Source: Lytechinus pictus
Taxonomy: Eukaryota
Direction: 5' to 3'
Assembly: GCF_037042905.1 (NCBI RefSeq)
Contig: NC_087245.1
Coordinates: 29,266,001 to 29,326,000, forward strand
DNA length: 60,000 nt
Below are positions 49,701 through 59,925 of the stretch, one piece after another. Within the stretch, counting starts at the first letter, position 1; each line of letters opens with the position of its first letter. The notes under the pieces were generated by a model. The model saw only the letters and a program-made list of their open reading frames with translations. It did no database searches and was not told where the DNA came from. A program made the position numbers and the translations under genes.

Positions 49701-52700
49701 TCTTGTTGTTAATTCTGGAAACGCCCTTCCGTAGATCCAAATCCGATATCGACAATACTGTATCTTACCGTGCTTACGGTGCGTAACCGACGGGCGAAGA
49801 AAAATAAAAACAAAACGCCCTTACTTACAAATATATTTGATCCTTTTGGTATGATGTAACCCGAAGAATGGACATCACAAGCTAGATCACGTATTACCCC
49901 ACTCACAGGAGGGTTAAGTCGCATTGTTTCTTTAAACACCTAAAAGTAATTTAAAAAATATAGGCTATATATAAGCTATATATATATATATATACATATA
50001 TTAATTTTTTTCATACAATTTTATTAAAATTCAGACAAAAACTCATTATAATTTCACATAAAATACTAAAGCAATTATTTAAAAATCACCCAAAACAAAT
50101 TGGTAAATGAAAGTCATATATTCTGCCAGCTTGGATTTTACTATTCATAGTGTGCTTGTACTGAAATCGTCTGTGCCCAAAAAAGGTATGATTTGAACAC
50201 TGAAGGATATTTTATTGGATAAATTAACCCGATTTTACATCCTTCGATAGGGGTGCCGATCAGAATATCTACATATATATTTATGCATTGTTTAAATAAA
50301 GCCGTTCTGAAGTATATTTAAATAGGGGAAGGCGGGGTAAGTTGAGCATAGGGGCAAGTTGAGCCACCACCCCAGGCCAATAATGAATGAGTCAGACATT
50401 GTGGTGGTGTCATGTATTGGTGACCCATTACATAACCCTTTACCCCACCACATTGTTTTCGACTGAAAAACTTTGAAAAAAGTACTTTTTTAGAGGGAAA
50501 AATACAAATTTCAGCCAAAAAAGTAAAAAAAGAGTGTAAAATAGATCAGTGCTTTTTACCCATACACGTCTTTAAATGTAATAAAGAAATAATAACAATA
50601 TTGTTAGTCCAGGTATGGATCTTCATTCTTGTCTTAGTCTTTTACATGATGGATGCATGAGAAATGTGTGGATGAGAAAATATTGCATTAAGTTCGGACT
50701 GGGGTACTTTGAGCCAGCCAACATGGGGCAAGTTGAGCCATGGTAATTCTTATGTTAATGTATAATAAAAAAAGAAACAAACCTTGAAAAGCCACTGATA
50801 TGCAGGCAGAAAGGTGCAAATTTACATGACAGTTCTTTTACTTTTAGATGATGTTAGTAAATATAGAGAATTAGCAAGTGAAAAGACTTGAAATAAGAAA
50901 TTGACATGCTGGTTCTTTCCGCATACATTTTGTACATAGTTTTTATGGCTCAACTTACCCCTCAAGGTGGCACAACTTACCCCACAGATGGGGCAAGTTG
51001 AGCCATTTGACATCGGTTTTTTCAAAGGTCACAATGAATTTCAGTTTGGGGTAGAAAGTTATATATAGGTGAAAAATATTTCCCAAGAATCAAATTTAAA
51101 GGCAAGGTACTTATTTGTACAATATTATTAGTCATATCAATTCCAACATGCAAAATGCAAAAAGTGTCACAACTTACCCCGCCTTCCCCTATTTAAAATG
51201 GGCTGAAAATGTCAGGATCTTTGTCAGTAGCAATGTAATATCCTATCACTAAATCTGGGAAAAGGGAAAAGGGACCGTTTTAAGTAGAGATCCAAAATTA
51301 ATAGAAAAACACTTAATCGGCTGAAAAGATGCCAAATTTAAATTCTAAAGGCTAAAACGCATTCAGTGACTGCTACAGTGTTTTAATCTTGGTATGTAAG
51401 TTGATGCTCGGGTCTAATGACTATTCACCAATATTTGACAAGTTTTAGATACATGTCTTATTTTAGACAAGTTAATACAAACCTACCCGAGACATATACT
51501 CCAGCTTGGGGAGGTCTGAGTACTCAATAACCGGTTTATTCCCCAGGACTTCATCAACTTCAGCTTTTAGCCTGTCCAAAAAGAAAATGGTAGAAACATG
51601 TCATTCTTAATCATTTACGGATTTTCAGCGCATCTTATTAGATTTATATTGGTATCAATTCGCAATGCAAGGCAAACGTTGACGATGTTATCGAATACTT
51701 CAACATATTGTTGTTAAATTCATTGCATTAATTTAATACCACTAAAGATGTTTACGAAGTCATTGGGATAAAATCCCGAATTTAACACCCTTCCTTTGTA
51801 TATAATATAGACCAGAATGTGAATATTTTCACCGTTGAAATTAAAATTACAAATAAAGATAAAAATAAATCATATATTTTACTTTTACAGTCAAGGGTCC
51901 ATAATGAATCATATTTTTTTACATTTAGAGTCATATTGATAGATTGATTATAATGTATCATCTTGAACTTCAAATCGATGTTGATTAATTTTGGCATGAT
52001 TTTCAGTAATTGATGTTAATGACATTAGCGAAAGTAGCTGTTGTAATCACTGGCGTAGCCAGGGATACACGGGACACATGATACATTTACCCCTCCCCTT
52101 TCTAGATCGGCCAGCAAAGACAGAAAGAGAGTGAAAAACGAAAGTCAGAATTAAATAACATACTGCACTGTTAGAAAGTTTATCCTTAAAGGAGAATGAA
52201 ACTCCTGGAGCAAGTTAGCTTTTGTGAAAGCAGAAAAATCAAAGAATAAGATCAACAAAAGTTTGAGTAAAATAGGACTAGCAATAGAAGAGTTATGAGC
52301 ATTTGAATGTCGAGATCACTAATGCTATGAAGATCCTCCCATTGGCAACGCAACCAAGATCTATGATATCACAGATGAACAACTCTCCCCTTTTGGACAC
52401 TGAAAATATACCCCAAAACATATCTTTTTGCTCTTTCTAATCATATGACAAACGATTCATCAATGATATAATGTTGTGAAACCTCTGTACTTGTCCTCTC
52501 ATAAAGAGAACACCTCACCTTGTGATAGATTCTATAAAAGTGAGAATATAAGTGAAATAAGTACTAAAGCAATGAGGGAGTTGTACGTGTGTGACATCAC
52601 AGATCTTGGTCGCATTGCCAATGGGAGGATCTACATGGCATTAGTGATCTCAATATTCAAATGCTCATAACTTTCTTATTATTCATTCAATCTTCCTCAA

Positions 52701-59044: not shown

Positions 59045-59925
59045 CGCATTCAGTGCCAATGTAAGGTATATGTGGCAAAAAAAATACTAAAAAAATAAAA
59101 AGGAAAGTGATGTACTGTATGGATTGCGCACTGTAGTAGAAACAACAGTTCAGCGATAAACTTGCTATAACAGTCGTCATACTTGATAATATGGTTTCCT
59201 TCTTTTATTCCGAGGGCCAAACTATTTATGGCTTAATAAAACAAGGAAGAGTATCACGAATTAAAAAAATTCAATGTACTTTCAAACTACATGTTATGAC
59301 TATCTTACTTTCTCTTTCTCCGAACGAGAGTGATTGGTGTTTGCTTCAGAACTTAAAAATGAAATCGAGAAGGGTGTTGGTGGTTTGTTTAGAAGCGTGA
59401 TTGCTTGTATGTAAGCAATTAGGAGACCGAAGGATTAAGGTCCTCTCCGAGGGACCTGGTAACATACCGAGTCTGTCCATGGACCATGGTCTGTCCGAGT
59501 GGCAATTCGACCAAGGTCATCGGATTGCGAAACAATCGTTCTGGCTACTATGCTAAGTTGATACCTTCCTATAATATGCTGTGTGTTAAAATGGAAAGCG
59601 AACTGTGGTCTCCGATTCACCGTATGTTATAAATAGCTAAACTTGCACAGAGAAACTAAATTGTTTTGAGAGGAAGAGTACTCGTTTATCTACTTGGTGA
59701 CATAGTTATTGCGCTATGAATGTATTGAGTAGTTTATTAGTGTGTTATCCTTCATGTTGAATCAACACCGCCGCGTATCCGTTTGATTTCACAATTACAT
59801 TTTAATTATATTCTTAAAATAAATAGGTTGCCGATCTTGAACTAAAACTTACCTCTTTGCCACGTCTTCATGTCTTCCAGATTCGAGTAAGGTAAACGCG
59901 AGGAGGTTGCTCGTGGTATCTTGAC
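46617..59925 (-). CDS. CYP46A1: Cytochrome P450 CYP46A1-like paralog B, 3' part (exons 8-13; 5' exons lie beyond window end)
   Basis: Exons (minus): 59853-59925, 51487-51571, 49829-49939, 48303-48391, 47017-47089, 46617-46757. Sizes (73/85/111/89/73/141) and phases are identical to paralog A, frame is open, TGA stop, heme loop [10 protein letters not shown]. Confidence 0.92.
47017..47089 (-). CDS. CYP46A1: CYP46A1-like B exon 12
   Basis: [24 protein letters not shown]. Confidence 0.94.
47150..47604. repeat. Degenerate (GAT)n trinucleotide microsatellite in intron 11 of CYP B
   Basis: About 450 bp of gat/ggt/aat/gac triplets. Confidence 0.95.
48303..48391 (-). CDS. CYP46A1: CYP46A1-like B exon 11
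   Basis: [29 protein letters not shown](L). Confidence 0.92.
49829..49939 (-). CDS. CYP46A1: CYP46A1-like B exon 10
   Basis: VFKETMRLNPPVSGVIRDLACDVHSSGYIIPKGSNIF. Confidence 0.92.
50325..51189. mobile_element. Tc1/mariner (pogo-like) MITE, TA TSD
   Basis: ta|ggggaaggcggggtaagttg ... caacttaccccgccttcccc|ta; internal ggggcaagttgagcca repeats. Confidence 0.8.
51487..51571 (-). CDS. CYP46A1: CYP46A1-like B exon 9
   Basis: [28 protein letters not shown]. Confidence 0.92.
52190..52773. mobile_element. Kolobok-type MITE, TTAA TSD
   Basis: ttaa|aggagaatgaaac ... gtttcattctcct|ttaa, with long imperfect internal inverted repeats. Confidence 0.8.
55713..58388 (+). CDS. Toll-like receptor (single-cysteine-cluster, echinoid-expanded type), intronless, 891 aa
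   Basis: Signal peptide, LRR-NT (C..VDCSHRDLKEVP), about 20 LxxLxLxxN repeats, LRR-CT (NPIACNCDLKWL...C...C), TM (IGLISLISLTIVCFIAISIITY), C-terminal TIR (FEFDLNIIF...W...GDEDLVLG...SYKTIIVLS...FWNKL); in-frame upstream TGA at 55704. Confidence 0.96.
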   Translation: MEVSHILHFLLLGFSSLFVRHVDAHAGFEATTSSTLLTSKSTHGCNQDMEFRMVDCSHRDLKEVPQDLSKDIVLLDLSNNRIKMLLNASFEVYPLITSLYISNNDLGVIESTSFHPLHGLKILNLSCNPRLVLPVKDVFNMSPQLFTLYLEEANLMTLPNDTLQSSQNFHRLLLSNNKLSFINISSCGKVHKVYMDGNQIQRIAKECFTFVCHSDFLDLTDNPIQFVDPDDFASLNILSLKLGFYPLSDEVLINITLGISKSNLQELTIVRGYSGAFSEGLFDPLCNSTLSVLNFYGNELTYLPPLVFANLTKLKQFTFSYNSLPIDTIPPDIFNGMESLDVLNISNNDITEINPDNQTWTLVKLTQLNLRENSLTKILSSTFRGLESLISLDMNSNKELSFLELNAFSGLSSIQYIDLSGTNVYDLQLNIPTLRILSLNNLLEPPNWTPSISPFRHLKSLVDFSLKKSSIILAHLLNNATSASLFDGLLNLHCLDLSGNYFRGTKFFDNTLPPGIFRQLFALQELIIDDCKIENVHHHFFMGLKSLQTLSLKGNNIKSLDGRLLSILPQLGSINLGGNQISYLERLIFLNNAKLTNLSLADNKLTSLNQSTFKPIASSISLLDLSNNPIACNCDLKWLIDLLNENIDLDNKDNTICTIASVEPLRLKHLLDFDPNKFCTSNIGLISLISLTIVCFIAISIITYHNRWYMKYKIFLLRLAAVGYREMQDAREHDDFEFDLNIIFYDDDEVWVREHFRPALVEHLPQFRRNVFGDEDLVLGMHYLDAVDYVVTHSYKTIIVLSRAAVRDRWFVLKFRTAMDHVSDTLTEFVMVVFLEDIRDDEMPFLVRLYLRDGRPYIHWTEDVRGQGYFWNKLTKYLTINLRTNDMLPNE
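58850..59005 (-). mobile_element. tRNA-derived SINE preceded by a (TG)n microsatellite
   Basis: Minus strand ggaggtgccgtggccgagtgg (A box)...ggggttcgatctccggc (B box), then non-tRNA body gtgagcaaggcattt. Confidence 0.75.
59385..59575 (-). mobile_element. Degenerate SINE carrying the gtccctcggagaggaccttaa core
   Basis: Reverse complement of 59436-59457 matches the core seen at 1482; eroded tRNA-like head upstream. Confidence 0.45.
59853..59925 (-). CDS. CYP46A1: CYP46A1-like B exon 8
   Basis: [28 protein letters not shown] acceptor, GTAAGT donor; homologous to 7906-7978. Confidence 0.9.

Follow-up and report, generated by a model that had tools for sequence, protein, structure and literature searches.

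How does an intact receptor gene come to lie, in reverse orientation, inside an intron of an unrelated enzyme gene, and is the arrangement more than an ordinary case of one gene nested in another? The question is raised by a stretch of 60,000 nucleotides of Lytechinus pictus (assembly GCF_037042905.1, contig NC_087245.1, positions 29,266,001 to 29,326,000 of the forward strand; hereafter the window). Here a single-exon Toll-like receptor (TLR) gene is placed antisense within intron 8 of B, one of two tandem CYP46-like P450 paralogs, A and B. The nesting is real and well formed, and the layout itself is already known from other nested genes. We consider it likely that this is an ordinary nested gene, that is, a Lytechinus TLR copy residing in intron 8 of B, antisense, with the host spliced across it.

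Geometry of the nested pair

The main features, in window positions unless stated otherwise, are the following.

55713..58388, plus strand: single-exon TLR open reading frame (ORF), 891 amino acids (ORF listing, Pfam, motif scan, Lytechinus variegatus ortholog)
51572..59852, minus strand: TLR-bearing intron 8 of paralog B (8,281 bp, GT-AG; exon mapping)
59853..59925, minus strand: exon 8 of B, 73 bp, end of the I helix (exon mapping)
51487..51571, minus strand: exon 9 of B, 85 bp (exon mapping)
46617..49939, minus strand: exons 10-13 of B (49939-49829, 48391-48303, 47089-47017, 46757-46617), which encode ExxR and the heme cysteine motif
61764-68008 in extended coordinates, 1.8-8.1 kb past the window end, minus strand: exons 1-7 of B (exon mapping)
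3348..31268, minus strand: paralog A, 13 exons, 509 amino acids, intact, 79.8% identical to B in protein
7483..7905, minus strand: intron 8 of paralog A, 423 bp, without TLR (exon mapping)

A and B are arranged in tandem on the minus strand and all their introns are GT-AG. Paralog B has 13 exons, encodes 509 amino acids without stops and spans 68008-46617 in extended coordinates; its exons 8 and 9 display AG acceptors, GT donors and compatible phase. Spliced B is identical to the last 509 amino acids of RefSeq model P0033, and spliced A equals P0041. The TLR is located wholly between two consecutive coding exons of B, which is what characterizes a nested gene, and every coordinate given in the original prediction holds when ORF, exon mapping and Pfam matches are compared. 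Mapping of the 13 exons of each paralog also confirmed the contrast between the 8,281-bp intron of B and the TLR-free 423-bp intron of A, the latter flanked by exons 8 (7978-7906) and 9 (7482-7398). Since A contains another intron of 16,024 bp, a large intron is by itself unremarkable. The nesting would have been illusory if exon 8 belonged to a third paralog; this was ruled out, as neither a third CYP paralog nor N gaps were found within -20 kb to +129 kb.

Identity of guest and host

The 891-amino acid frame has no stop and is the sole long coding ORF of the window. It matches LRR_8 (E=4e-53) and TIR (PF01582, E=9e-9), with cysteine caps at 45 and 56 (LRR-NT) and at 632/634/657/679 (LRR-CT). 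About 21 motifs resembling leucine-rich repeats (LRRs) were counted with a loose pattern and with the signal region included, and a single hydrophobic peak at 683-701, followed by the TIR domain, indicates one transmembrane helix. By Pfam, motifs and cysteines the protein has the 21-25 LRRs between LRR-NT and LRR-CT that define an sccTLR, together with the single transmembrane helix, the TIR domain and, as regards the coding part, the single exon. Its TIR BB-loop carries Leu, as in the Strongylocentrotus purpuratus relatives, at a position where Pro is the usual residue. As the original prediction stated, sea-urchin TLRs are mostly single-exon members of an expanded family, in agreement with PMC3367398. 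The sccTLRs described there share with the present gene the single exon, the 21-25 LRRs, the LRR-NT/LRR-CT caps, the transmembrane and TIR parts, and lineage-specific expansions, and the 68 TLRs reported in it for L. variegatus are near the 71 TIR matches of the L. pictus genome.

Among solved structures the host matches human CYP46A1 best (E=1e-103), the next family being CYP3A5 (2e-40), and in the tree, where vertebrate CYP46 rows served as outgroup, the echinoderm CYP rows come out as their sister group. The I-helix Thr, ExxR and the heme Cys are intact, all of which places B in the CYP46 family. Despite this likeness in structure match and tree position, B is about 40% identical to its vertebrate relatives and belongs to an echinoderm CYP46-like expansion, which in this genome amounts to at least six genes, A and B and at least four further loci (C5, C7, C10, C16). 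Hence "cholesterol 24-hydroxylase" is for B a family label, and its oxysterol activity a prediction extrapolated from the family.

Splicing, expression and assembly

We propose that intron 8 of the CYP46-like gene B received a copy from the intronless TLR family that is expanding in Lytechinus. This would have taken place no earlier than roughly the A/B tandem duplication, while the two Lytechinus species still formed one lineage. Being antisense, the splice and polyadenylation signals of the copy would go unrecognized in the pre-mRNA of the host; B could thus still splice exon 8 to exon 9, and the copy would have survived for this reason. The same may account for the antisense bias of such nested receptors. 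Transcription of the TLR would start from its own promoter in about 400 bp of single-copy upstream DNA, and selection on the receptor itself would have retained it, while repeats filled the intron later.

Reads bearing on this proposal came from 4 of the 19 listed runs, mapped to 48150-60000. Two are stranded RNA of unspecified tissue, of which about 6% each was read; X1 is of the same species (and may be related to the source sample) and X4 of a related organism, organism B. In the X4 contigs the TLR is covered in pieces. Its coding sequence differs at 66 of 1,560 bases in five pieces, against 76 of 911 in the contig of the flank on the exon 8 side (Fisher p=3e-5); this slower change is as expected for a gene under selection.

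Several observations weigh against the proposal. The TLR had zero depth in the two stranded RNA runs at the sampled fraction, the exon 8-9 joint was absent among the 15 joints listed (260 more being unlisted) at about 1-2x depth, and no single contig of the mapped runs crossed the whole of intron 8. Older models of B, P0025 and P0034, end at exon 8. Moreover, the order of the A/B duplication and the S. purpuratus split is ambiguous in the CYP tree considered below, and neither retrocopy marks (poly(A) remnant, target-site duplication) nor a shared flank were found around the TLR.

Part of this evidence would equally follow if B were not spliced across the TLR at all, being functionally truncated at exon 8, or if the region were misassembled, as the near-identical tandem blocks in the window might also suggest. 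Yet the exons on both sides of the TLR are intact, and A and B differ by a dN of 0.11-0.12 against a dS of 0.65-0.81. Full-length B models are present for both Lytechinus species, and as predictions these models join exons 8 and 9. The X1 contigs tile 54974-58759 and 58921-59881, running into exon 8. The RNA bins with exons 9 and 10 of B showed 0.55-2.08x, all on the strand of B, although some of these few reads could come from A. Given the joints listed, splicing of B across the TLR is neither shown nor refuted by the reads; truncation or misassembly nevertheless appears very improbable to us. A practical consequence is a warning for annotation, as the older models broke CYP B precisely at the TLR-bearing intron.

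Returning to an ordinary nested gene, the next question is when the receptor arrived.

Age of the proposed insertion

The L. variegatus TLR P0002 is 94% identical to that of the window. In L. variegatus a single chromosome carries this TLR, full-length B and A, and their accession numbers are neighbours (in the order TLR, B, A); this order indicates neighbourhood only and does not distinguish nested from adjacent genes. A second A/B pair of that species (P0032 and P0029; 99%) is annotated on this chromosome too, and the protein cluster contains no TLR corresponding to it; it may be an uncollapsed haplotype, a case of an unannotated TLR or a presence/absence difference.

A phylogeny had been put forward as a check together with the original prediction. 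In a tree of 23 rows, distant groups omitted, the TLR falls in a Lytechinus-only clade (support 100/98 for five rows and 89/79 for seven rows) beside a separate S. purpuratus expansion. No TIR match was found in A or in the four other CYP46-like loci, and blastn of A against B detected no TLR remnant in the 423-bp intron of A. As these four loci have no receptor, gain in B is the most parsimonious history, which favours the predicted arrival of the TLR after the CYP duplication over an older insertion lost from A.

Under the latter alternative the nesting would predate the Strongylocentrotus-Lytechinus split, and a founder TLR would have seeded both radiations and disappeared from A after the duplication. 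The S. purpuratus TLR XP_030829850 (P0168) is indeed on the same 39.7-Mb scaffold as the CYP46 pair of that species, 69 accession numbers away from XP_030829781 (CYP46), although accession distance is not position. The CYP tree also leaves room for an old founder, since A, B and the S. purpuratus pair form an ambiguous three-way fork (p=0.47 and 0.38 for two alternatives in the approximately unbiased (AU) test). The TLR tree test is compatible with an in-place founder, and co-duplication of host and TLR followed by decay of 2 of 3 copies is seen in the CLCA trio described below. On the other hand, P0168 is only 57% identical to the window TLR and sits inside the S. purpuratus expansion, and the intron of A bears no trace of a lost receptor. 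One-to-one orthology of the window TLR with P0168 was rejected (single joint clade, p-AU 1e-18). On balance, an old founder seems to us rather unlikely. A metagenome scan with Strongylocentrotus CYP46 exons 7-10 returned just one locus, at 50% identity, which was uninformative on the orthologous intron.

The three-way fork implies that the A/B duplication is about as old as the Strongylocentrotus-Lytechinus split, placed at about 50 million years (My) in PMC3367398. The insertion can be assigned, with loose support, to the interval between that divergence (about 50 My) and the separation of the two Lytechinus species. As a marker, a single nested TLR serves neatly to date one dispersal of the family, and to that extent the suggestion of a datable event stands; given the S. 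purpuratus TLR on the scaffold of the CYP46 pair, an older origin is conceivable.

Recurrence of nested receptors

In the L. pictus genome at least 71 TIR matches were found, fragments included, scattered over most large contigs. Of the 70 other loci, 29 were examined (ranks 2-30 and 32, leaving out rank 20, which is in the flank of a neighbour), each with flanks of 9-13 kb, extended for six loci; at a score of at least 5 the exon finder used made 18 calls, which included 16 of the 22 internal CYP exons. Six of the 29 are nested, 2 are clearly not, 6 are ambiguous (C20:11.78, C12:28.0, C2:10.2, C2:19.6, C4:30.0 and C5:19.7 Mb) and 15 have no host in range. Including the window, at least 7 of 30 loci are thus nested, all antisense and none sense, in five unrelated host families that represent five independent events. 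The count of intron-nested TLRs envisaged in the original prediction was in this way obtained for a sample of loci rather than genome-wide. The nested cases outside the window are the following.

L012:4673-7345, C2:35.24 Mb, antisense: intact TLR; the host is a zinc carboxypeptidase (M14) gene whose TLR-bearing intron measures about 8.5 kb (Pfam on both sides)
C2:25.58, 25.63 and 25.72 Mb, antisense: three CLCA paralogs, each with a TLR in the corresponding intron, host and guest co-duplicated
L058, C7:43.13 Mb, antisense: TLR between phase-compatible exons of a large gene, in a 20.6-kb intron (exon mapping)
L054, C14:6.96 Mb, antisense: TLR in a PWWP gene, the least certain case (weak Pfam, E=0.03)

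The CLCA trio (L069/L045/L070, L101/L081/L052/L082 and L102/L077/L050/L078; C2:25.57-25.73 Mb) was co-duplicated at 86-92% including flanks, and 2 of its 3 TLRs are broken. We take the host at C7:43.1 Mb to be CFAP61-like, and the PWWP host at C14:7.0 Mb is presumably ZCWPW1-like. The four independent events outside the window are all antisense (4/4), with p=0.06 against a 50:50 expectation and p=0.25 against the 71% of Drosophila. Seven of 30 is a minimum for the nested share, and no enrichment over chance is claimed from it.

Two candidates were rejected as nested. The TLR at C4:7.7 Mb lies between two divergent fructosamine-kinase paralogs, and that at C12:3.45 Mb lies beyond the last exon of an ADP-ribosylhydrolase gene. 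The former (L033/L017/L034, C4:7.73-7.75 Mb) is also frameshifted. The host intron at C7:43.13 Mb additionally holds a 1,253-amino acid LINE-type ORF.

Functional coupling and known nested genes

Recurrence allows the speculative suggestion of the original prediction to be weighed, namely that antisense overlap couples the expression of the receptor with that of the oxysterol enzyme. Common enhancers, or collision of opposing polymerases, would tie the TLR to the enzyme, and selection would keep the layout, which does appear kept in two species. Carboxypeptidase, CLCA and P450 genes are, besides, of types expected in gut and secretory epithelia, and this was counted in favour of coupling. Some TLR groups are gut-expressed (PMC3367398). 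The same layout nevertheless recurs with unrelated hosts, among them a cilia-type gene and a PWWP gene, and its retention over a short term requires no selection on position. The enzyme activity, too, is a predicted one. In Drosophila, co-expression of nested pairs is no higher than random (median rho 0.019 vs 0.032; PMC3814207). The suggestion thus finds no support here, and we judge it improbable.

A broader version, that dispersed TLR copies are preferentially kept antisense in genes of gut or secretory epithelium and adopt the open chromatin or enhancers of the host, is only slightly less doubtful. If it were true, the landing site would set the tissue of the receptor, and colonisation of introns would diversify the deployment of an innate receptor family.

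For an ordinary nested gene there are good precedents. In Drosophila melanogaster, nested structures take in 9.5% of genes; of these 71% are on opposite strands, and most arose via insertion into introns (PMC3814207); the antisense bias and the intron insertion are alike in the two cases, whereas the phylum is another one. In vertebrates, the LRRTM1-3 genes lie antisense in alpha-catenin introns; these are nested LRR genes whose duplication and decay go along with those of the host (PMC3933685). Both systems have an opposite-strand intronic gene for an LRR transmembrane protein, and in both the pair co-duplicates and loss of either partner is possible, the CLCA trio being the example here. The present case differs in being an immune TLR of a fast-turnover family, in an 8-kb intron and lineage-specific, while the LRRTM case is pan-vertebrate. 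The sccTLR paper (PMC3367398) describes tandem arrays, and an intron location of TLRs does not figure in its passages covered. Neither an echinoid nested-gene census nor an account of intron-nested sea-urchin TLRs was found in the literature searched, most subscription papers falling outside it. What deserves to be followed is the recurrence across five hosts. The antisense-nested TLRs are host-guest pairs with which the effect of position on TLR expression could be tested, which makes them a more useful result than the single locus, and the host introns offer a route to true TLR orthologs where sequence alone fails.

Composition of the intron and route of copying

By read depth, intron 8 of B is composed of a single-copy TLR unit of about 3.5 kb and about 4 kb of repeats, so that only the former part of the contrast between 8,281 and 423 bp is due to the receptor. 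The repeats are distributed as follows.

52186..52777, no strand assigned: high-copy miniature inverted-repeat element, arms of about 200 bp, TTAA at both ends (depth, repeat search)
53298..55277, no strand assigned: dispersed repeats in mid copy number, on the upstream side of the TLR, of which 53431-55017 is 72% like L019:6754-8401
58842..59852, no strand assigned: repeat-rich stretch from the TLR 3' end to exon 8, with 59089-60000 in one contig of organism B

The 1.6-kb repeat held in common with L019 is opposite in orientation to the TLR of L019, which indicates independent insertion. A TLR carried by a transposon was rejected, as no inverted or direct repeats were found to enclose it other than matches of chance size, and copies had no flanks in common. 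The nearest TLR paralogs are 70-76% alike in DNA, in the coding sequence only, and too old to reveal whether copying proceeded via RNA or DNA. Since paralog homology ends at the coding ends, with neither an enclosing repeat nor a target-site duplication, the copying route of the TLR is illegible.

Positions 58900-59010 contain a high-copy element whose minus-strand reading appears to resemble a tRNA-derived SINE. At 59413-59462, some 2,000 RNA reads per run, on one strand and consistent in their loose ends, pile up on a 50-bp fragment, which resembles an abundant transcript from elsewhere; an Rfam scan of 50-60 kb, this fragment included, gave 0 matches at E<=0.05.

Other features of the region

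Intron 4 of paralog A contains at 22521-26880 a 4.3-kb stretch that forms an inverted repeat with itself (94%), foldback-like and with internal tandem repeats. At 13525-22463 of the same intron, near-identical direct repeats surround a C-rich stretch without long ORF, namely a pair of 830 bp (13525-14354 and 15094-15923, 99.9%) and a pair of 288 bp (14810-15097 and 22176-22463, 100%); they represent a young non-autonomous element or an assembly effect. Between A and B, at 33704-40995, a 3,646-bp tandem duplication of 99.9% identity inside a satellite-like array is either very recent or an assembly artefact. The CYP pair is flanked on both sides by long single-exon ORFs of 850 and 893 amino acids with similar cysteine-rich starts (loci L009 and L002; extended coordinates -12264 to -14813, minus strand, and 75794-78472, plus strand), which are possibly paralogous receptors.

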